Below, one piece after another: positions 10,629-56,835 of a stretch of 64,000 bases of DNA; position 1 is the stretch's first letter; each line of letters opens with the position of its first letter. The DNA comes from Pedobacter sp. (GTDB taxonomy: Bacteria > Desulfobacterota > Desulfuromonadia > Desulfuromonadales > Syntrophotaleaceae): NCBI GenBank assembly GCA_050253415.1, contig JBFWJC010000002.1, positions 544,725-608,724 on the forward strand, read 5' to 3'. The position numbers were made by a program, and so were the translations under genes. The notes under the pieces are model-generated. The model was not told where the DNA came from, did not search any database, and was given only the letters and a program-made list of their open reading frames with translations.

Positions 10629-12155
10629 TCAACGACACCGCCAGCGAAACCAGGCCTTTAACAGTTTTTTCAGCAGGGGTGTCAATCGAGTGCGTTGGTA
10701 ACTGTCGGCCAGTTTACGCAGGATTTCAGCCTGAGTCGGATAAGGGTGAATGGTTTTGCCAATGGCCCCCAACCCCAGCTCTGCGGAGATGGCCAGCGCC
10801 ATCTCACCGATCATCTCTCCGGCGTGCGCAGCGACGATGGTCGCACCGAGGATCTTGTCGCTGCCTTTTTTCAGGTGGACCCGTGCGAACCCCTCCGTTT
10901 CACCGTCGATCAGTGCCCGATCGACTTCTGCGAGCGGGACGGTCAAGGTGTTGACGGCGTGGCCTTGCTGTCTGGCTTCTTCCTCGTAGAGCCCCACATG
11001 GGCTACTTCGGGGGAGGTATAGGTGACCCAGGGGATGATCATGTTGCGGGTCGTCTGTCTACCGTGAAACAGCGCATTGGCGAGCAGAATGCGGGCCATG
11101 GCATCGGCCGTATGGGTAAACTTGTAGGGGGAGCAGATATCCCCGGCGGCATAAATGCGGCGGTTGCTGGTGCGCAGACGTTCGTCGACCCGGATGCCGG
11201 TTTTGGCGTCGAATGCAACCCCTGCCTGGTCCAGTCCCAGGTCGTCGACGTTGGGAGCGCGGCCGATGGCTACCAGAATCTCGTCGACCACCACATTAAG
11301 GGGACCTTCAGGAAGGTCGGCCTGAATGATTTTATCGTGATCCTGTCGGCTGATTTGCTTGGTGCGGCATTCAAAATGAATAGTGATTCCTTCACCCTTC
11401 ATAGTGTGTTCCACAATGGCGGCCGCCTCACGATCTTCGCGGGGCAGCACGCCGCTGCCGTATTCGAGTACCGTAACCTGGCTACCGAGTCGGGCGAAGG
11501 TCTGGGCCAGTTCGCAGCCGATGGGGCCGGCACCGATAATGGCAAGTCGCGGCGGCAGTTTTTGTAGATCGAAGACCGTTTCGTTGGTCAGATAGCCGGT
11601 TTCTTTCAGGCCCGGGATCGGGGGGGCGGAGGCTCGGGCGCCGGTGCAGATGGCAGCCTTGCGAAACCGCAGAGATTTACCGCCGACCGTCAAGGTGTCG
11701 GGAGAGGTGAAGCGGCCTTCACCAAAAAAGACATCCACACCCAACTCGTGTTGGAAGCGGGTGGCGCTATCATGCTGGCTGATGGTGGCCCGCACCGTTT
11801 TCATATGCGCCATGGCGGCGCTAAAGTCGGCATGGATCTTTTCTGTACCCAAGGCTCCGAACCGGTGTGCGTTGCGGGCCTCGGCCACAGCCCTTCCGCA
11901 GCGGATCAGACCCTTGGAAGGGACACAGCCAAAGTTCAGGCAGTCTCCTCCCATGCTGTGTCGCTCGATCAATGCGACCCGGGCACCGAGCCCCGCGGCT
12001 CCAGCAGCTGTCACCAGACCTGCGGAGCCGGCTCCGATCACCACCAGGTTATAGCGGGCTGCCGGGTCGGGATTTGTCCAGCTGTCAGGCCGGACGTTAT
12101 CTGCGAGAATCTGGTCGGAGGCGTTGTTCGATGTTTTTTTATGGGCGTTGAACAT
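10629..12155 (-). CDS. Pyridine nucleotide-disulfide oxidoreductase (MerA/Lpd-like, no metal-binding extras)
   Basis: GAGSAG FAD motif, GGDCLNFGCVPSK redox disulfide, HPYPTQAE C-terminal motif. Confidence 0.85.
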   Translation of the reverse strand: MFNAHKKTSNNASDQILADNVRPDSWTNPDPAARYNLVVIGAGSAGLVTAAGAAGLGARVALIERHSMGGDCLNFGCVPSKGLIRCGRAVAEARNAHRFGALGTEKIHADFSAAMAHMKTVRATISQHDSATRFQHELGVDVFFGEGRFTSPDTLTVGGKSLRFRKAAICTGARASAPPIPGLKETGYLTNETVFDLQKLPPRLAIIGAGPIGCELAQTFARLGSQVTVLEYGSGVLPREDREAAAIVEHTMKGEGITIHFECRTKQISRQDHDKIIQADLPEGPLNVVVDEILVAIGRAPNVDDLGLDQAGVAFDAKTGIRVDERLRTSNRRIYAAGDICSPYKFTHTADAMARILLANALFHGRQTTRNMIIPWVTYTSPEVAHVGLYEEEARQQGHAVNTLTVPLAEVDRALIDGETEGFARVHLKKGSDKILGATIVAAHAGEMIGEMALAISAELGLGAIGKTIHPYPTQAEILRKLADSYQRTRLTPLLKKLLKAWFRWRCR

Positions 12156-48529: not shown

Positions 48530-49177
48530 ATGGGTATGGATACGCATGATCCCGTAAAAGTCTTTTTGGTTGATGATCATCCATTATTGCGAACCGGATT
48601 GAGGTTTACTCTCGATGGTATGGAGGATCTTAATCTTATTGGGGAAGCTTCGGATGGATTTGAAGGCGTTGAAAAAATTCTCAAAAATCCTCCGGATATT
48701 GCGTTGATTGACATCGATTTGCCGGGTATTTCCGGCATTACCGTCATCGAGATGGTCAAAAAAAAGCTTCGCAATATAAAGATTATCGCCCTGTCCTCTT
48801 ATTCTGAAAAAACTTTTGTGACCGGTGCTATGGCCGCTGGTGCGGATGGATACATGCTTAAGGCCATCAGCATTATGGCTTTGGTCGATTTTCTCAGAGA
48901 TTTCGCCAGGGGAGAAAATCCCAGTTCGCCTTATTTGCTTGATATGGCCGTACCCGATGAGGAGGGAGGCGAGCAGGATCCCGTTCATATCACGCCACGG
49001 GAGCATCAAATCCTAGAGTTGATTTCTGAGGGGAAAAGTAACAAGCAGATTTCCAGCGAAATTTTTCTTAGTATCGAAACGGTTAAAACTCATATTAAAA
49101 AGATTTTTAGCAAGCTGGAGGTAAAAAACCGTCTGGAGGCCGTTGTTGCGGCCCGACAGCGGAAAATCATTGAATAA
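48530..49177 (+). CDS. NarL/LuxR-family response regulator
   Basis: LVDDHPLLR, DIDLP, C-terminal TPREHQIL...SNKQI...ETVKTH HTH. Confidence 0.92.
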   Translation: MGMDTHDPVKVFLVDDHPLLRTGLRFTLDGMEDLNLIGEASDGFEGVEKILKNPPDIALIDIDLPGISGITVIEMVKKKLRNIKIIALSSYSEKTFVTGAMAAGADGYMLKAISIMALVDFLRDFARGENPSSPYLLDMAVPDEEGGEQDPVHITPREHQILELISEGKSNKQISSEIFLSIETVKTHIKKIFSKLEVKNRLEAVVAARQRKIIE

Positions 49178-49265: not shown

Positions 49266-49688
49266 ATGGTTGAGGCAAGGATTAGAGTCTTTTTGGCAGA
49301 TGATCACCCTTTGATCCGCACCGGGTTATCGTTGGCGTTTGAATTCGACCCCAAGGTTGCCATTATCGGTACTGCCGACAATGGTTGTGATGCCATAGAG
49401 GAAATAGAAAGGCTTCTTCCCGATCTCGTGCTTATGGATCTCGATATGCCCGGTTTGTCCGGGGTTGCAGCAATAAGGGAATTACGGAAGAAGTTTCCTG
49501 TGATGCAAATTTTGGTCTTGTCCACGTACAATGATCGTAAATACCTTGAAGATTCTCTCGAAGCAGGCGCTACGGGATACGTTTTAAAAACAATAAGTAT
49601 AGAATCATTATCAAATCTGATTATCGATATTAAGGAAAATAACGAAATTGTTTCACCGTACGTGTTATTTCTTAATAGGGATTCGTAA
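49266..49688 (+). CDS. Single-domain NarL-type receiver protein
   Basis: LADDHPLIR, MDLDMP, GYVLK; ends at SPYV without an HTH. Confidence 0.88.
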   Translation: MVEARIRVFLADDHPLIRTGLSLAFEFDPKVAIIGTADNGCDAIEEIERLLPDLVLMDLDMPGLSGVAAIRELRKKFPVMQILVLSTYNDRKYLEDSLEAGATGYVLKTISIESLSNLIIDIKENNEIVSPYVLFLNRDS

Positions 49689-49782: not shown

Positions 49783-51459
49783 ATGAAAAAAACCCTCAAC
49801 CTTCTTGATCTTGTTGATAAAGAGACTCTTGACGAAATACTCGATGCTTTTAACGAAGTATGTGGTATCGGATCGGTTATCGCTGATGTAGAAGGACGTC
49901 CCTTGTCCGGGGAAAAAAACTTTACCAAATTTTGCGCCAAATATTGCCGGGGGACGGAATCCGGGCGCAAGAAATGCTACGCGAGTGACGCCTTTGGCGG
50001 CGAGATGTCTCTGAAGCAACAGGAGCCGTACGTCTACAATTGCCTGAATTCCGGTTTGGTGGACTGCGCGACGCCGATTATCGTTGAAGGCTACCATCTT
50101 GCCAACCTGAATGGTGGCCAGGTTTTGGAAGATCCCATCCCTGAAGATATCGCGATTGCCAGAGCCAAAGCCATCGGGGTTGAAGATATCGATGGCTATC
50201 TGGCGGAACTTGCCAAAGTCCCGTTTGTCACTAAAGCCAAATTGCAGAAAATTGTTAAATTCATGGCGGTTATAACGCGTACCTTGAGCGATATGGCTAT
50301 GCAAAAATACTTGTTGGCCAAACAGTCAAAGGAATATCTGAACAAATTGGTCAATAGTGTCTCCGACTGTATTTTTGCCATTGATGTCAACTTCCGGATT
50401 ACTATGGTCAACAAGGTTTGCCATGAGGCATTTGGTTATGATGGTGGTCAGCTTTACGGGAAAAACTTTTGCGAGCTCTTGGCTCCAGGTGATAAAATCC
50501 TCGAATGTAAAAGTAAATTGGACCATGGGGCAGAAGATAACTTCCGAGTGGAAATGGAAGGGGTTAATAGCGACGGTAGCAAGTTCCCTGCCCAGGTATC
50601 TATTTCACGTATCAACGACGAAGACGGTGCCGTGGCCGGCTATGTCGCCATTTTGAGGAATATTACTGAAGAAAAACGGCATGAAAAAATGAAACAAGAT
50701 CTTGTGGCTATGTTGAGTCACGACATGCGGAATCCGATTTCCGCAATCAACAAGACTCTGGAATTACTTTCTACGGAACGGATTGGCAGTATTAACCAGA
50801 AGCAGGAGCATGTTATCAGGCTTGCGTCTAACACAAATGATCATTTGTGTAGTATGGTTAACTCATTTTTGGATATTTTCAGAGAAGAAAATACAAACTT
50901 TCAGCTAAACAAGACATCTTTCAACCTTGATTCTGTTATAAATGATTGTATTGAGGAACAATCCTTATTGTTGGCCGACAAGAATCTTGGAATAAAATAT
51001 TCGCCAAAAAATACAGCATTGGATGTTCATCTAGATCTTATCCGCATGAAAAGAACGATAACCAATCTTCTCTCCAATGCAATTAATTACAGTGTTGCCG
51101 GTGGAGTTATCAGCGTTGAAGCCAGGCGCGTTTTTGGCCGTAATAAGGTGCTCTTAAATGTCGTTAAAAGTCACCTTGTCGGGCATATAGATCCCTCTCG
51201 GAAATACCTGTGGGTTGCCGTTAAAGATCAAGGGTATGGCGTGCCCGAAGAGTACCAGGAAGCGATTTTCGAGAAATTTTTTACAGTCGAAAGCAGAGAG
51301 GGGATGGGGCGGCGTGGCATAGGCCTGGGGTTGGCATTTTGTAAACTTGTTACGGATGCGCATGGTGGAATCATTTTTGTCCGCACACCGACAAGTAAGC
51401 CCAAGTACCAGAAAACACCCGGGTGCGAGTTTCACCTTGTCGTGCCGGTTGCCCAGTGA
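49783..51459 (+). CDS. Cytoplasmic PocR-PAS sensor histidine kinase
   Basis: N-terminal FTKFC..YCR....G.KKC..SD...YNC.SGLVD.ATPIIVEG.....GGQV (PocR-like), PAS, H-box SHDMRNP, NLLSNA, DQGYG, GIGLGL. Confidence 0.88.
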   Translation: MKKTLNLLDLVDKETLDEILDAFNEVCGIGSVIADVEGRPLSGEKNFTKFCAKYCRGTESGRKKCYASDAFGGEMSLKQQEPYVYNCLNSGLVDCATPIIVEGYHLANLNGGQVLEDPIPEDIAIARAKAIGVEDIDGYLAELAKVPFVTKAKLQKIVKFMAVITRTLSDMAMQKYLLAKQSKEYLNKLVNSVSDCIFAIDVNFRITMVNKVCHEAFGYDGGQLYGKNFCELLAPGDKILECKSKLDHGAEDNFRVEMEGVNSDGSKFPAQVSISRINDEDGAVAGYVAILRNITEEKRHEKMKQDLVAMLSHDMRNPISAINKTLELLSTERIGSINQKQEHVIRLASNTNDHLCSMVNSFLDIFREENTNFQLNKTSFNLDSVINDCIEEQSLLLADKNLGIKYSPKNTALDVHLDLIRMKRTITNLLSNAINYSVAGGVISVEARRVFGRNKVLLNVVKSHLVGHIDPSRKYLWVAVKDQGYGVPEEYQEAIFEKFFTVESREGMGRRGIGLGLAFCKLVTDAHGGIIFVRTPTSKPKYQKTPGCEFHLVVPVAQ

Positions 51460-51546
51460 GGTCTGGGAGGGAACGTGTATCAGTCTCGGGTTCGATAAGG
51501 CTTAAAGAATAGATCTGTTACAGAAACAGATTAGTTTGTCTGTAGT

Positions 51547-51586
51547 AAAAGACCGGTGCGAGTGGCGCCGGTCTTTTGTTTTTTTT
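51547..51586. terminator. Bidirectional terminator separating the two accessory loci
   Basis: aaaagaccggtgc-gagtg-gcgccggtcttttg followed by a T tract. Confidence 0.85.
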
Positions 51587-51612: not shown

Positions 51613-52206
51613 CTAATTCATGCTCGCCAGACTTTCAATAATTTGCTTTGAAATCAGGTTTTTGGAGGAATTGTAGGATGATTCGGGCGCCACCAGCCCG
51701 ACGATAAAATATGCGGTATCTTCTGCTGGGGTAACGAAACCGACCAGCCGTCGCTTATTGAAATCCAGGTCGATCCATAAAAGATTGCCAGCTTCCGGGT
51801 CGATGCGCTCAAGCTGATCCATGGCATAGATCATTTCCGCTCCCGTGCATTCAAAACCGTGGCCAGGGATTCGGCCGCGCGTCGCAATAATGAAGCCCTG
51901 AGAATCGACGACAAAGGCTGCCTCGGCGCGGGTCACGCTGATACACCAGGCAATGCAGCTTTCCCAGTCGGCAAACCTCTGGGGTGGCGGTGCAACCTCT
52001 GTTTCCTGGGGGGCTTCTGTGTTGGTAGGACCTGCTACGGAGGCCGGCAGCGCTACAGGGTCTATCCTTTGTTGCGCAGTCAGGCGCACAAACGTTTGCG
52101 TGTCGCTTCGCTCCAGGGGTTTCCCATGTTGTTTTTTCGGTACGAGAGTGGCCAGAATCTGCTGCGCGTACTTCAGGTTATACGAGTTCACGTTGCGGTC
52201 TTTCAT
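51613..52206 (-). CDS. Hypothetical protein with a C-terminal Roadblock/LC7-like domain
   Basis: AEAAFVVDSQGFIIA beta-hairpin pattern after a Pro-rich linker; overlaps the ParA 3' end. Confidence 0.6.
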   Translation of the reverse strand: MKDRNVNSYNLKYAQQILATLVPKKQHGKPLERSDTQTFVRLTAQQRIDPVALPASVAGPTNTEAPQETEVAPPPQRFADWESCIAWCISVTRAEAAFVVDSQGFIIATRGRIPGHGFECTGAEMIYAMDQLERIDPEAGNLLWIDLDFNKRRLVGFVTPAEDTAYFIVGLVAPESSYNSSKNLISKQIIESLASMN

Positions 52207-52993
52207 CTTCGACTCCCGTATCGCCACCCATATTTTGGATGATGGTTTGGATTTCCGTAGCCAGTATCTCGAATCTTTTGGCTTCAGGTGGGCACCTGCC
52301 TGGTAAAAATGCGACCGGTACGCCTTTTTCGCTGGCCATGTGAAAAACCTCGGCGCGCGGTATGTAGGTTTCCATGACGCCGGGTAGCGACGACCAGGCG
52401 GTATTCATGATGGTGAAGGAAACATCCATGCTCAATTCCACCATGATGGCCAGAATGCCGAGCAGTTCGAGATCCGGGTTTTCAGTTTCTTTGACGTGCT
52501 GAAGCACATGCAAGGATTGAGAAATGGCCCGCAGGGCAAGAGGCTCCGCCTGCAGGGGGAGCAGGGTATGGGTGCTGACCGCCAGCGCTGCTCGGGTAAC
52601 CGATCCCAGCCCCGAAGGGGTATCGATGATGATGTAGCGGAATCGATGTTGTACTGATGTGATGATATCCTGCAGAGCCGTGGAGCAGCGCAGAACATTT
52701 TCGTAGATATCGATGTCCAGCGGATCAAGGCAGCCCCTTGGCAGAATTGATAGCTGCGGTAATTTGGTTTGCATGATGACATCGTCAAGCAGTGTCTCGT
52801 CAACTATGTGTTCCGCCAGGCCGCGCCACTCGGTGTCGCTGCGTGCCAAAGAAAAACCGATGGCGCCAAGAGGGTCCACGTCGATGAGTAGCGTGGAATC
52901 TCCAGCTTCGGCCAATGCAACGGCCAAATTCAGGGCAACCGTGGTTTTGCCTGTGCCGCCTTTGGAACTGACTATGGAAATAATATTTGCCAT
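52178..52993 (-). CDS. ParA/MinD-family ATPase
   Basis: Deviant Walker A SSKGGTGKTT, IDVDP, IIIDTP, PLQAE; homology starts at MANII. Confidence 0.9.
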   Translation of the reverse strand: MANIISIVSSKGGTGKTTVALNLAVALAEAGDSTLLIDVDPLGAIGFSLARSDTEWRGLAEHIVDETLLDDVIMQTKLPQLSILPRGCLDPLDIDIYENVLRCSTALQDIITSVQHRFRYIIIDTPSGLGSVTRAALAVSTHTLLPLQAEPLALRAISQSLHVLQHVKETENPDLELLGILAIMVELSMDVSFTIMNTAWSSLPGVMETYIPRAEVFHMASEKGVPVAFLPGRCPPEAKRFEILATEIQTIIQNMGGDTGVEDERPQRELV

Positions 52994-53190
52994 ATCTTCA
53001 CCGCATATCGTTAAGCGTGTTGTATCCGGGCGTGACGTAGTATGCCTCCCGGATTTCGCTATTTCTTCAGCGTCCTGCTGACCCAACTCCGGATATATGT
53101 CCATCGGCCAGATGGCGGTGCGTTCCAGGTTCATGCCAGGAGGCCGTCGCTGCTATGCCCGTGGGCGCACTGTTGCTGATATGTCTCCGG

Positions 53191-53769
53191 TCACTTGCTG
53201 GTTACAATAAATTCGCCGTAGGCATCGCCTGCTTCGAGACCTTTGGTCTGCTTACAGACAAAGGTGTCCATGCCATCCGGGTAGGGGGCCGCATAGGTAA
53301 GATCGAAGAAGGCTTGATTCAGTCCTTGCAGCATGTAGGCACGTAATCCTTCCCCCTTGCTGTCTGCTTCGTAATAATCGAAAGCCCGGACAATCATTTT
53401 TTTTCCTTCTTTCAGTTGCACGATGCCCGATTTTGCCCAGCCCCAGGCGGTGAACGCCGCATAGGCGCCGCGCAGAATGTCTTTTTCATCTTCGGTGACC
53501 ATTGGCATAACCACTTCGCTGAAAATTTCAGAGGTGATAATGCCGCAGCCGGTGTGGTAGCCACATTCATAGGCCGCCCTGACCAGTCCAGCCTCGATCT
53601 CGGCTTTACGCTCGGGTGCTGCAGCGAGAAGTCGTTCCGTTAAGGTGTTCAGCAACGAAACAGGCAATAGGTTGACCAGTACTTCGTATTCCGGGATCAA
53701 TCCTTGCTCGTTACTTTGCACAGTGACTTTGGCAAGAGCCTTAACCACGTCGTTTCGCATGACCGTCAT
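53191..53769 (-). CDS. V4R-like protein
   Basis: AWGWA, MLQG..QAFF and QTKGLEAGDAYGEF resemble the V4R C-terminal motif; GGAGG RBS. Confidence 0.6.
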   Translation of the reverse strand: MTVMRNDVVKALAKVTVQSNEQGLIPEYEVLVNLLPVSLLNTLTERLLAAAPERKAEIEAGLVRAAYECGYHTGCGIITSEIFSEVVMPMVTEDEKDILRGAYAAFTAWGWAKSGIVQLKEGKKMIVRAFDYYEADSKGEGLRAYMLQGLNQAFFDLTYAAPYPDGMDTFVCKQTKGLEAGDAYGEFIVTSK

Positions 53770-53788
53770 GTGGATCCGTCCTCCTTGT

Positions 53789-54304
53789 TCAAGCTGCCTT
53801 GACGACAAACACGCTTTGTTCCTCGCCTGTGACCATTCCGGCAGTTTCGGTTACGGAAAAACTTCTGGGGGCGCCATTGAAAATTGCGGCAAACAAGGCC
53901 GCTACATAGCCGCGCGTGAAATGGTTGATCGGTTTATGGTGTTTGCCCCATTTTATCAGCCAGCCTTCATCGATATGGGAATGGCTGAGTCGGGCTTCTC
54001 CGGATTGATCGTTGCCACTGATGGTCATTTTACCCAGCCCGAAAGTAGAGAAATATTCGGTGCCGACCATCCCCTTTTCCCTGCTGTCGGTGATACTGTT
54101 TTTCTGGAAATAATCCTCAAGCAGGACACGCATCGTATCTTCGACCGTATCAGCCAGAATTTGCGGCCCGTTGATATCATCCAGGTCTTCCACCAGTTTG
54201 GTGATGAGTGCCAGGTAGTGGTGGGAATGCATGACCACAGGGTGACCGTTAAGGTAGTGACGATAGGTAGTGTCATCGAGAGTGAAGTCGAGTTTAAGCG
54301 GCAT
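53789..54304 (-). CDS. V4R-like protein
   Basis: FGLGK, KPINHFTRGYVAALF and VTETAGMVTGEEQSVF; HSHHY motif; GGAGG RBS. Confidence 0.6.
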   Translation of the reverse strand: MPLKLDFTLDDTTYRHYLNGHPVVMHSHHYLALITKLVEDLDDINGPQILADTVEDTMRVLLEDYFQKNSITDSREKGMVGTEYFSTFGLGKMTISGNDQSGEARLSHSHIDEGWLIKWGKHHKPINHFTRGYVAALFAAIFNGAPRSFSVTETAGMVTGEEQSVFVVKAA

Positions 54305-54316
54305 CGCGTGTTCCTC

Positions 54317-55093
54317 CTAGAAAGACAAGCCAAGCTCTTGGAACAGTTTTTTGGTTTTGTGACGAATGATTCCCAGCTTGGAAGCGTCGGGGGTGACGAT
54401 GGCCGCAATGGCATCTCCTACCGGTTTGCACATGATGACTGCCCTGCCGTATTCGATGAACATATCCTGGAACTGGTTGACATTCAGCTCCGTGCCCATT
54501 TCTTCAATGCCATTGATGGAGTGAGCCAGCGAGGCTCCCAGTTCATCAATATTTACCCGGGCGCTGCTGCCGGCGGATTCAATGACGAATCCGTCACGAC
54601 CAACTACCACCACGGCATCAATGCCGGAGATTTCCAGCAAATCGTTCAAGACATCTGTCGATTCTCTTGGTTCTTGTTCCATGGACGTATTCCCTTCCTC
54701 AATTACTGGCGCGCTATTGGGTGTAAAGCTGTTAGTCATGTTTTCCTGTAAAACAATGGCTTCAAGGATGGCATGCTGGACCGACAAACCGATGTCTGTC
54801 TCCGGGGGGGCGATTCCCGGCAAGAAATTAAAAGACCCCTTGTTCCAGTTGAGCATGTCGGCAAAGCTTTCCATTCCGGTTTTTTCACTGGTCTTTGCCG
54901 ACAGGACCTTGCCCTTTCCAAAATAGATCATGCCCTCTTCATTTTGCGGATGGCGTACAATTCTGATCGCGCCACTTTCGGCGCTCGCTGCCAGAAACTG
55001 CAATAGGTCGGTAATGGTCGTCAGCGACAAGTTACCTTGTAGACCACGATCTTTCGGATCGCCTGTTATGGTTGGACCATAGAGCCCGGGCAT
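54317..55093 (-). CDS. DUF4388 + Roadblock/LC7 (MglB-like) fusion
   Basis: LQGNLS...DLLQFL...SG...G.IYF..G...W..GSF.F (DUF4388); GIDAVVVVGRDGFVIES...LGIIR (Roadblock). Confidence 0.85.
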   Translation of the reverse strand: MPGLYGPTITGDPKDRGLQGNLSLTTITDLLQFLAASAESGAIRIVRHPQNEEGMIYFGKGKVLSAKTSEKTGMESFADMLNWNKGSFNFLPGIAPPETDIGLSVQHAILEAIVLQENMTNSFTPNSAPVIEEGNTSMEQEPRESTDVLNDLLEISGIDAVVVVGRDGFVIESAGSSARVNIDELGASLAHSINGIEEMGTELNVNQFQDMFIEYGRAVIMCKPVGDAIAAIVTPDASKLGIIRHKTKKLFQELGLSF

Positions 55094-55209
55094 ATTTAAC
55101 CATCCTGAATTGGTAGGTGTTTAAAGCTGCGTCCTTGGTTTATTCCAGTTGTGGGCCCGTTTCTCGGACTGTTTCAGACTTCCCTATGCCTTGGTAAAAA
55201 GGGCAGCCC

Positions 55210-56553
55210 TTAACCGAAGACCAGCATGGTCGAAGTCTGATTGATGTGGCCGATATACTGTTCCCCATAGGTACTGAATCCGACCGTGGGGATGTCGGCA
55301 AAGAGTTTCCCGTAATCCCCGCAGAGATTCTGCTGGCGCAGATCCAGCGTTCGCAAAATACAATCGAAATTGATGATCCCCGAGATGCTTCCGTGTTTCT
55401 TTTGAGCCTGGGCAATTGCCTGACGGGTGTCGCCGATCATATCGGTGGATTCAAGCAGCGAGAGCTTCATGCCCTCCTTGACACCGCAATAAAAAAACAT
55501 GGTGTCCCCTTTGATGCGTTGCGGGCTGCGGACATAGGGCTCGCCGTCGACAACCAGTCCGATGGGGTTACGCATAAAGCGCTGACTTACTTCGTTGACC
55601 GGCACACCGATCGCTTCGGCATAGGCTACCGCGGCTGGTTTATCGTTGAATTGCAGAACTTCGCGATTGGCTTCATCAGCTTTGGTTACCCTGAGAGTTT
55701 TGCCGAGAAACCGGAAGCTTTGGGTTTTGATGAAGGAGAATCCAATCCCCGGTTTTAGGAGTGCGAGAATTGCGGCATTGGTGTAACAGGTGCCATGTGC
55801 ATAGACGTGGGTTGCTGAAAATTGCAGATCATCGCCAGCCGAGCCGCCGATAAAGGGTACGTTGGTCAGGTCACCGAGGGTTTCAATGACTTTCTCTTCA
55901 ATACCGGCCAACCCGTCGATCAATAGGATGCCAACGTACCGGGAGGGATCCATGGCGCCTACAGGCTGCCTGAAGTGGGTCTCGAAATTATGGAAGGCCT
56001 GTTCGATGGAGGAGCGTTGTTTGAGGTTCTGTATGACTTCAATTTTCAGGTCCTGCGCCGCTTCGGCAGAAAAAGCCATGGCGACAACAGCGCCTGTCAG
56101 CATATGGCCGCTGGTGATTTCACCTGCCGTTGAGCAGCCGAAGACCTGGGCTTTGGGGAATCCATCATGCATGTGCCTGCTGATGGCGTCGGGCGCATGT
56201 TGCATGGAAGAGAAAAATATAACCATGGCAGGGTCCATGCTTGCAAGTTGCTGTTGGATTTCCCTGACGCATGCTTCGGTGGATATTTGTTTTGAAAACG
56301 CCGTTTTGATGGTCCCGGTCGAGGGCTTTTGGGGGGTATTTGAACGGATGTCGCCCGTTGCAACGCAAAAGGTCTTCATCATGTCTTCCAGCTTGGAAAT
56401 AATGGCAGGTACGTCCTCGGACTGGGCTGTGTACTTGACCGGATTAATACCCTTGAGGATCATTTTGGTTTTAATGACCCGTTCCATCATGGGGTTGTCT
56501 TTTGCTGCGTGATCGATGATGAAGTCGATCATTTGGCGAATTTTTCCTGCCAT
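55210..56553 (-). CDS. FIST N/C-domain sensor with a small N-terminal helical domain
   Basis: GCSTAGEI, IDGL, GGSAGDD, PAAVAY, FDCILR and GFSTYGEQ...HINQT motifs. Confidence 0.88.
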   Translation of the reverse strand: MAGKIRQMIDFIIDHAAKDNPMMERVIKTKMILKGINPVKYTAQSEDVPAIISKLEDMMKTFCVATGDIRSNTPQKPSTGTIKTAFSKQISTEACVREIQQQLASMDPAMVIFFSSMQHAPDAISRHMHDGFPKAQVFGCSTAGEITSGHMLTGAVVAMAFSAEAAQDLKIEVIQNLKQRSSIEQAFHNFETHFRQPVGAMDPSRYVGILLIDGLAGIEEKVIETLGDLTNVPFIGGSAGDDLQFSATHVYAHGTCYTNAAILALLKPGIGFSFIKTQSFRFLGKTLRVTKADEANREVLQFNDKPAAVAYAEAIGVPVNEVSQRFMRNPIGLVVDGEPYVRSPQRIKGDTMFFYCGVKEGMKLSLLESTDMIGDTRQAIAQAQKKHGSISGIINFDCILRTLDLRQQNLCGDYGKLFADIPTVGFSTYGEQYIGHINQTSTMLVFG

Positions 56554-56835
56554 GAAAATACCTCCTGATAAAAGTCCAATTCTGCTTGTTTGGCCTAACA
56601 GACTGGTGCTGACATTTGCCTGAGCGGATTTTGTTGCGCTCGTATTTGACGCGGTGTTTTTATCAAATGGCGGATTGCCGAGATTGCAAAGAAGAAGCGG
56701 CTTGAAAACAGAAATGATTTATTTAAATGTAAGGAAGGTAATATAATATTTTAATCATTGATGTCAATATATTAAAATATAATTTTTAACGATGTTTTAT
56801 TTTGTCTGGTGTCTGGCGAGGGGAGGTCGCAGGCG

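Follow-up and report, generated by a model that had tools for sequence, protein, structure and literature searches.

Roadblock/longin-fold proteins across life, among them MglB, Ragulator, TRAPP and the signal recognition particle (SRP) receptor, regulate or scaffold small GTPases. What, then, do such proteins act on in an operon that combines them with a ParA-type ATPase and encodes no GTPase? The question is raised by six same-direction open reading frames (ORFs) on the minus strand at 51613-56553 of a 64,000-nucleotide (nt) stretch of Pedobacter sp. (Desulfobacterota; Desulfuromonadales; Syntrophotaleaceae; GenBank assembly GCA_050253415.1, contig JBFWJC010000002.1, positions 544,725 to 608,724), the whole of which is called the window below. 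In order, the genes g1 to g6 (Table 1) code for a FIST protein, a PATAN(DUF4388)-Roadblock protein, two V4R-family proteins, a ParA-like ATPase and a second Roadblock/MglB-like protein. These ORFs and labels had been given by a first-pass annotation made from the sequence alone, which also reported that the cluster lacks histidine kinase, methyl-accepting chemotaxis protein (MCP), DNA-binding, ParB and small-GTPase domains. Pfam and NCBIfam scans of the six genes likewise detect none of these domains, the ORFs are present, and all six labels hold after testing, which the two V4R labels and the second Roadblock label needed because g3 falls below the V4R cut-off and g4 and g6 have no Pfam match. 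We propose, with a probability of roughly 55%, that the operon specifies a nucleotide switch that receives sensor input and has at its center a ParA-type ATPase in the place of a Ras-like GTPase.

Evidence for such a switch comes from the linkage of the last two genes. In all 38 loci retrieved with the single peptide pattern [AGT]FVVD[STN]QGF, a search that used one genome per species and a 17-row subset of the g6 family and is, owing to the single pattern, biased to close relatives, the ParA gene stands directly upstream of a g6-family gene. The same holds for 10 of 10 further loci, which come from the 9 of 301 genomes with a match in an Acidobacteriota sample, giving 48 of 48 in total, the counts not being independent in that some loci represent the same genome counted twice (e.g., L018/L059 and L017/L080, where L numbers denote loci). 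The two frames overlap by 29 nt in the window and overlap in relatives too. By the evidence of gene order, a ParA with intact ATP-sandwich motifs is thus genetically locked, through overlapping frames, to a protein of predicted Roadblock fold in at least two phyla; among the nearest Atlas clusters the commonest phylum is Myxococcota (score 0.96). Searching 400 other genomes of the window's phylum with the g6 profile gave no match beyond the window's own genome (G000), a null that shows only that the g6 family is not widespread in that sample, because it listed no other genome of the window's family.

The ATPase itself, g5, matches Pfam AAA_31 with 110.9 bits (cut-off 27) and possesses an intact deviant Walker A motif, S-S-K-G-G-T-G-K-T-T, at residues 9-18. 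Across 27 orthologues, no change occurs at G12, G13, G15, K16, T17, T18, D38, D40 or D124, and at least 90% have K11; the DxD motif and the D-T-P-S-G Walker B motif are invariant or nearly so, and the threonine following the Walker B aspartate is retained in at least 90%. Judged by these motifs, the ATPase looks active. Its nearest solved relative is 8ray_B, a "ParA family protein" (E 1.6e-27), followed by Soj. Since g5 remains under every cut-off of the named NCBIfam subfamilies (ParA_partition, 78.8 of 180 bits; eps_fam, 77.8 of 108; BcsQ, 77.5 of 158; MinD_arch, 74.5 of 202), we regard it as an orphan ParA lineage. Its C-terminal tail, with the consensus D-E-R-P-Q-R-E-L-[VI], is conserved across phyla; this conservation may reflect the overlap, because the same bases (window 52178-52206) encode the start of g6.

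The partner, g6, has a tripartite layout, with a conserved N-terminal helix (residues 9-21) that is kept across an alignment of 68 diverse members, a variable proline-rich linker, and, at the C-terminus, a predicted Roadblock/MglB-like domain (residues 81-193). The g6 family comprises 293 clusters at 50% identity. An AlphaFold2 (AF2) model (predicted local distance difference test [pLDDT] score, 85.3, with residues 81-193 at about 87-97 by block) predicts an alpha-beta-beta-alpha-beta-beta-beta-alpha order of elements in that domain. With Foldseek, the predicted structure finds 96 PDB matches at E<=1e-3, headed by the MglB structures of Myxococcus xanthus and Thermus thermophilus (6hjm, 6izw, 6h5b and 1j3w; best E 1.7e-5, target TM-score [TMt] 0.63-0.74) and continuing with archaeal Roadblock proteins and LAMTOR. 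Further, the g6 family profile matches the Roadblock domain of g2 within the genome (E 6.8e-8), and hhalign aligns g6 with the same domain (E 2e-4, probability 45%). Pfam Robl_LC7 gives no match with g6, a distant member in L114 reaching 20.3 bits, below the cut-off, and PDB sequences searched with the g6 alignment profile yielded 0 matches at E<=10. The genome encodes another, 119-amino-acid (aa) Roadblock protein (35.1 bits) at G000:C2:798275-798634. A gap of 9 nt separates its gene from an upstream ORF of about 1190 aa, the N-terminus of which looks SMC-like when its first residues are judged by eye.

The first-pass annotation had asked for the six genes to be conserved together, and the answer differs with phylogenetic depth. 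Among 41 related genomes, g3 is present in 15 (14 of 16 from the same family and 0 of 24 from other families of the order), and of 7 loci from five genera of one Desulfuromonadales family, 6 have all six genes in the same order. The search that returned 38 loci has all six in order in 28, ParA and g6 only on 5 short contigs, a set without g1 in 4 Acidobacteriota loci (L089-L092), and a different arrangement in 1 (L094). Because the same order recurs in 6 of 7 and in 28 of 38 loci, the arrangement is not due to chance. Conservation of the full set thus stands within the Desulfuromonadales family; beyond it only ParA and g6 are invariant, with the FIST protein and the V4R pair being exchangeable. 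In the Acidobacteriota loci L089-L092 and L109 the order g2-g3-g4-...-g5-g6 is kept, with identities across the phyla of 61-64% for g4, 51-53% for ParA, 45-52% for g2, 45-51% for g3 and 31-41% for g6. These operons have a class-V aminotransferase (Aminotran_5) after the V4R pair and are flanked by an activator combining a receiver (REC) domain with a sigma54 module and by a REC-GGDEF-EAL protein.

A further variant in the Acidobacteriota sample, for which only part of the ORFs of each locus was scanned, lacks V4R and FIST proteins altogether and retains ParA and g6 in all four instances (L111, L113, L114 and L116). Here the company consists of a PAS kinase (L111, L113 and L114), a 121-aa Roadblock protein (L111, L114 and L116), an ODP-family diiron protein (L111, L113 and L116) and a REC-PATAN protein (L111, L113 and L114; REC only in L116). 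In L094, ParA-g6 is convergent to a set of genes for REC-PATAN, MglB, MglA, PATAN, DnaA-like ATPase and Roadblock proteins. As far as gene neighborhoods can tell, the invariant core of the system is ParA with its overlapping g6 gene, often accompanied by a PATAN protein and a second Roadblock domain, and it is the sensors that are swapped between lineages around this core.

One of these exchangeable modules is the V4R pair. g3 scores 14.6 bits against the Pfam V4R cut-off of 31, and g4 has no Pfam match; the two are paralogues (hhalign 98.2%, E 5e-14), and members of the same two orthologous groups in distant genomes do pass the cut-off (45.7, 40.3, 38.9, 37.1 and 35 bits). The most conserved protein of the operon is g4, which has 724 homologues at E<=1e-3, with identities of 77-100% in the best 120 clusters, and which finds matches in 20 of the 401 genomes sampled from the phylum. 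Its AF2 model (pLDDT 84.4, predicted TM-score [pTM] 0.82) is most similar, according to Foldseek, to the aromatic-sensor domains of MopR (5kbi, E 5.4e-6, query TM-score [TMq] 0.71), PoxR (5frw) and DmpR (6iy8), and thereafter to TRAPPC3/Bet3; the predicted match to the phenol-sensor domains spans about 200 columns. In distant loci, two adjacent V4R genes were found in 16 of 16 examined. Strict pairing and a fold that matches ligand-binding sensor domains agree with the earlier suggestion that the V4R proteins are a sensor-type module. On the strength of its gene contexts, the pair is a portable two-gene sensor cassette, with neighbors elsewhere that include PAS kinases, a HisKA_3 kinase with a LuxR regulator, a soluble MCP, and two Roadblock genes.

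The fold of g4 and the position of distant V4R pairs directly before PAS kinases are points of likeness to the known V4R sensors (XylR/DmpR/MopR/PoxR). Unlike those, g3 and g4 are stand-alone proteins that form an obligate pair and have lost the cysteines of distant members. In the ParA-linked versions, the aligned cysteines are replaced by Asn/Gly/Ser in g3 and by Ala/Gly in g4, whereas His26, His28 and His29 of g3 and Cys69 of g4 are invariant or nearly so. The lost cysteines cluster in the C-terminal half and correspond to the zinc site of the solved PoxR and DmpR sensors.

Several V4R cassettes elsewhere have contexts of their own. In other Desulfobacterota (L044, L046, L052 and L053), the pair immediately precedes the genes of a PAS-PAS-(GAF)-HisKA_3 kinase and of a LuxR regulator, and the flanks hold genes for a corrinoid adenosyltransferase and MtrH-like or URO-D-like methyltransferases, making V4R-sensed control of corrinoid-dependent methyl transfer possible in these four loci. 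In L050, L051 and L055, the pair and a PAS hybrid kinase are divergent from a gene for an Mrp/NBP35-type (NUBPL) ATPase (335 bits in L050); downstream of the latter, L050 has genes for a methyltransferase, a DUF6627 protein, a C39-like peptidase and a TPR protein. The V4R pairs without ParA that are closest to those of the operon were inspected for MglA or Roadblock genes behind them. In L041 (G305:C45, 10208-12343), the genes after the pair encode two small proteins that are paralogues, contain Cys and have no Pfam match (155 and about 146 aa); two Roadblock genes and the end of the contig follow. In L119 and L120, two relatives on longer contigs, neither MglA nor Roadblock genes were found after the V4R pair.

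The other candidate sensor, g1, is a stand-alone protein with both the N- and the C-terminal FIST domains (Pfam FIST, 139.6 bits; FIST_C, 78.6 bits). Its alignment to the NCBIfam NosP model runs from end to end (positions 1-368 of 368) and scores 277.5 bits, below the equivalog cut-off of 450. Desulfuromonadales loci carry orthologues of 54-89% identity, and the Acidobacteriota operons have none; phmmer against PDB sequences gave 0 matches at E<=0.01. An N-terminal stretch of about 85 aa (residues 1-85, window 56299-56553) is conserved in orthologues and has no family match in Pfam or NCBIfam, and in several relatives tblastn breaks g1 into two pieces at this extension. In the passages available from PMC12570481, NosP proteins are described as stand-alone FIST sensors that control partner kinases. 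The alignment along the full NosP model and the shared nature of a stand-alone auxiliary sensor liken g1 to such NosP-kinase modules. It differs from them in the additional N-terminal region, in the score below the equivalog cut-off, and in an operon without a kinase, the nearby PocR-PAS kinase being convergent and linked at the level of the genus only.

What connects these sensors to the ATPase may be the PATAN-Roadblock proteins. g2 combines a DUF4388 (PATAN, PF14332) domain at residues 19-115 (63 bits, cut-off 25) with a Robl_LC7 domain at residues 147-233 (40 bits, cut-off 23). Most relatives have, between g4 and g5, a seventh gene for a protein of about 300 aa with a PATAN domain and a weak Roadblock match in Pfam. 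It is present in 27 of 40 loci (most of those from Desulfuromonadales and the Acidobacteriota loci L089-L092) and absent from 13 of 40 and from the window, where tblastn detects no remnant at E<=1e-4. Going by this distribution, the window's genus has lost the seventh gene and with it a second PATAN protein.

Of the module that the first-pass annotation inferred, comparative evidence supports the pairing of ParA with Roadblock proteins and the logic of the sensor modules; direct action of a Roadblock protein on ParA, a V4R heterodimer and a role in positioning or polarity are putative. From these observations we assemble the following mechanism. g6 would bind ParA and, through its N-terminal helix, may stimulate the ATPase, as the N-terminal peptides of other ParA/MinD partners do. 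The Roadblock domain of g6 would form either homodimers or dimers with its counterpart in g2, the second PATAN protein being available in most relatives, and the ATP-dependent monomer/dimer cycle of ParA might in this way be tied to a Roadblock/PATAN platform. As their families and the module swapping suggest, g1 could sense a gas or heme-type signal and the obligate g3/g4 pair a small ligand or cofactor, both reporting to the platform as stand-alone auxiliary sensors in the manner of NosP for kinases. More speculatively, the system may act via PATAN or ParA-ATP on a machine of the cell envelope, type IV pili or motility for example, and control where it works or whether it is on or off. We name a type IV pilus or other polar machine because PATAN-REC regulators, as reported in the sections found of 10.1101/2021.06.11.447907, bind the pilus ATPase PilB1 in Synechocystis.

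Prediction of a complex of two ParA chains, two ATP and g6 returned the grade "weak support": the median score was 0.54 (runs 0.35, 0.63 and 0.54) against 0.00 for the best of 3 controls, with the runs sharing at least 43% of contacts and a partner pLDDT of at least 61. The mark for passing is reached by 116 of 157 solved complexes and by 2 of 215 mismatched pairs; scores up to 0.60 are found for 18 of the 157 solved complexes and for both passing mismatches. A score in the range of that for ParA-g6 is more often wrong than right unless the interaction is likely beforehand, and no interface is reported, which is the first of several points that weigh against the proposed switch. A second is that the Roadblock assignment of g6 draws on a predicted model, a weak hhalign alignment and the profile match to the g2 domain, with the Pfam and PDB-sequence searches empty. 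Third, the shortfall from the NosP equivalog cut-off means that g1 can be called NosP-like only, with putative heme binding. Fourth, as the cysteines of distant V4R pairs are lost, the ligand of g3/g4 may differ from that of other V4R proteins, or the two may be scaffolds only. Fifth, in L019 (G010:C145, about 11500-12100), the one of the 7 family loci that departs from the common order, ParA is cut off at about residue 42 and the locus yielded no g6, although g1-g4 are complete, as is the seventh gene, which codes for the PATAN protein. Behind the ParA remnant come a short tandem repeat and genes of no relation to the operon. Either the deletion is genuine or the assembly is at fault; since g1-g4 are kept in this locus, the upstream genes can persist without the core. 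Two more such points, a possible action on MglA and a possible sulfur or Fe-S link, belong to the alternatives considered below.

One known system with a close resemblance to the operon is the MglA/MglB(/MglC, RomR-RomX/RomY) polarity switch of Myxococcus xanthus and Thermus thermophilus. In both, Roadblock proteins are encoded together with a P-loop nucleotide switch, PATAN proteins are neighbors, and there are several Roadblock paralogues per system; the predicted structure of g6, moreover, superposes best on MglB. Unlike in the Mgl switch, the NTPase of the operon is of the ParA type (SIMIBI class, deviant Walker A, ATP) with no MglA in the operon, g6 is extended relative to MglB by an N-terminal helix and a long linker, the operon includes sensors that are proteins in their own right (FIST and the V4R pair), and g2 is below the cut-off of the sole NCBIfam MglB model listing it (12.8 bits, cut-off 200).

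This likeness invites an alternative, namely that the operon is an accessory branch of the ordinary MglA/MglB polarity module. The genome's canonical MglA would then be the target, in trans, of the operon's Roadblock and PATAN proteins, in the manner of MglC and RomY in Myxococcus, and ParA would only position or sequester the complex. The Roadblock/PATAN proteins could indeed talk to MglA in trans, as the genome has an MglB-MglA pair (G000:C2:368933-370143, about 230 kb from the operon), which adjoins pilM/N/O-like genes, and as L094 places ParA-g6 beside the MglA-MglB-PATAN set described above. PATAN genes are, furthermore, known neighbors of mglA/mglB in the portions consulted of PMC4316618. 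Against this, tblastn with the genome's own MglA finds a match in the fetched flanks of just 1 of 56 ParA-g6 loci (L094), with the window not among the matches, and in none of 18 fetched V4R-pair loci without ParA. No cognate MglA lies within four genes of the operon, the distance that serves to recognize an MglA/MglB module in PMC4316618. The invariant partner gene of g6 is that of ParA, in an overlapping frame, and the low score of g2 with the MglB model also speaks against membership of that module. We consider the accessory-branch account unlikely, at odds well below those of the ParA-centered switch. The same counts bear on two statements of the first-pass annotation: its description of the cluster as a conserved unit without a small GTPase is sound, and its worry that orthologous clusters always carry MglA or che genes, as a decayed known system would, is not borne out for MglA. 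Reading from the flanks of these loci, the cluster is not a decayed MglA system.

A second alternative sees the operon as a machinery for handling a cofactor or metal center, in which the SIMIBI-type ParA-like ATPase and a sulfur-mobilizing enzyme supply the V4R pair with a cofactor, Fe-S or other, or sense it there, and the Roadblock proteins serve as assembly factors. The aminotransferase of the Acidobacteriota operons is cysteine-desulfurase-like (214 bits) and stands between the V4R pair and ParA; another Aminotran_5 gene directly follows the V4R pair in L056 (391.9 bits), and the Mrp/NBP35-type ATPase adjoins the V4R pair-kinase cassettes in L050, L051 and L055. These recurring neighbors hint at a sulfur or Fe-S link, which is absent from the window operon. 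The conserved His and Cys residues of g3 and g4 would suit such a role, and the excerpts seen of a preprint (bioRxiv 10.64898/2026.10.19.760177) note ParA lineages in metallochaperone-like contexts. Yet the aminotransferase is missing from all Desulfuromonadales loci as well, the variant with the ODP-type protein retains ParA-g6 without any V4R gene, the PATAN, REC, kinase and GGDEF-EAL neighbors indicate signaling, and g5 is nearest to chromosomal ParA/Soj, not to Mrp/NBP35; this account is accordingly improbable in our judgment. A ParA-based anti-phage or anti-plasmid defense system, which the presence of ParA lineages, V4R and profilin/longin-like domains in the predicted immune systems of the same preprint might suggest, was rejected as very improbable on the PADLOC result (a partial match of 18.9 bits for ParA, with the remaining five proteins unmatched), on the lack of an effector-type domain among the six proteins in Pfam, and on the slow evolution seen above for g4 within the best clusters and across phyla, as against the rapidly diverging components that the preprint's accessible passages describe, and the locus sits among housekeeping genes with conserved synteny and unremarkable GC content.

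Returning to the ParA-centered switch, its second parallel is with the positioning systems of the ParA/MinD class (ParB, MinE, McdB, PomX/PomY and ParP/TlpT). Here too an orphan ParA with intact motifs has a small partner gene next to it, and the partner carries a conserved N-terminal peptide and a disordered linker, with weak support from complex prediction for binding. PomX, for one, is described as an ATPase-activating protein for a ParA/MinD ATPase in the text found of PMC7993993, which does not mention an N-terminal peptide. The operon departs from these systems in that the globular domain of g6 has a predicted Roadblock fold and in that no cargo gene (carboxysome, chemoreceptor, divisome or parS/ParB) is present. 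No description of a ParA partner with a Roadblock fold was found in the literature searched.

The first-pass annotation knew of no description of this combination of genes, and the claim needs one amendment. A single sentence and one figure panel (Figure 2B, panel 16) of the October 2026 bioRxiv preprint 10.64898/2026.10.19.760177 state that ParA domains of the PriB1 clade displace MglA in MglA-MglB-centered systems, a displacement that the same part of the preprint takes as evidence of switch function. The shared element is a ParA that replaces a Ras-like GTPase beside MglB-like proteins. The words "FIST," "PATAN," "Roadblock" and "DUF4388," by contrast, have 0 occurrences in its text, and the passages found contain no analysis of a V4R pair or of the g6 architecture. 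The marks of PriB1 given there are Asn and Gln, where g5 has Ser (first Walker A position) and Leu (two after the DxD). No other description was found in a search that did not extend to subscription journals. The operon is probably an unstudied kind of cellular switch, the idea of which has recently been touched on in a preprint.

If the proposed switch exists, it would speak to a known gap. In the parts available of the survey by Wuichet and Sogaard-Andersen (PMC4316618), 328 of 749 MglB homologues (about 44%) are orphans without a GTPase partner, none of them characterized, and those parts mention PATAN neighbors and neither ParA nor V4R. The operon family would offer a ParA-type ATPase as a concrete partner for one set of these orphans, extending the reach of the Roadblock fold to SIMIBI ATPases. 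For ParA/MinD biology it would mean a partner protein of a new type and the first dedicated sensory inputs, with sensors of nitric oxide (NO), O2 or ligands linked to spatial regulation without two-component phosphotransfer. More tentatively, and at somewhat less than even odds, we suggest that small GTPases are not the only nucleotide switches under the control of Roadblock/MglB platforms, and that a second class, unrelated to the first and independent of GTPases, consists of a ParA-type ATPase and a Roadblock protein whose N-terminal peptide activates it, with interchangeable gas, redox or ligand sensors (NosP-like FIST, V4R heterodimer and ODP) and PATAN adaptors that steer a polar machine such as type IV pili. 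If so, bacteria would have a counterpart, acting on an ATPase, of the Roadblock/longin-plus-V4R(Bet3) proteins that regulate small GTPases in eukaryotes, and one that is testable in cultivable Desulfuromonadales.

The features of the locus are collected in Table 1. The starts of g4, g5 and g6 were revised on the basis of alignment to orthologues. The genes are separated by 116 (g1-g2), 12 (g2-g3), 19 (g3-g4) and 197 (g4-g5) nt.

Table 1. Genes and flanking features of the six-gene operon and its convergent neighbors (positions in the window)
Feature	Position	Strand	Remarks
g1	55210-56553	-	447 aa; FIST, NosP type
g2	54317-55093	-	258 aa; PATAN(DUF4388)-Roadblock
g3	53789-54304	-	171 aa; V4R family (V4Ra)
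g4	53191-53769	-	192 aa; V4R family (V4Rb); start is Met14 of the ORF, matching the database form
Spacer	52994-53190	-	197 nt; place of the seventh gene in most relatives
g5	52178-52993	-	271 aa; ParA-like ATPase; start is Met48, where homology begins in relatives
g6	51613-52206	-	197 aa; start is Met8; position 8 of the profile is the start in most listed full-length members
Promoter-like site	56740-56767	-	TTGACA, 16-nt spacer, TATATT; 11/12 consensus matches; about 190 nt upstream of g1
Terminator hairpin	51544-51580		16-pair stem; between g6 and the convergent PocR-PAS kinase gene
LuxR-type response regulator	48530-49177	+	convergent neighbor
Single-domain receiver	49266-49688	+	convergent neighbor
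PocR-PAS-HisKA-HATPase kinase	49783-51459	+	convergent neighbor

The PocR-PAS kinase and the two regulators beside it were considered as members of the system and rejected, as only two of the 7 family loci (L014 and L018), both from one genus, have them next to the operon. The promoter-like site is a pattern match alone, not significant by itself, with 3 such sites seen against 5.9 expected in shuffles. At the other end, the hairpin is bordered by AAAA and TTTTGTTTTTTTT, so that it forms a strong terminator on the plus strand (T-run) and a weaker one on the minus strand (TTTT only).

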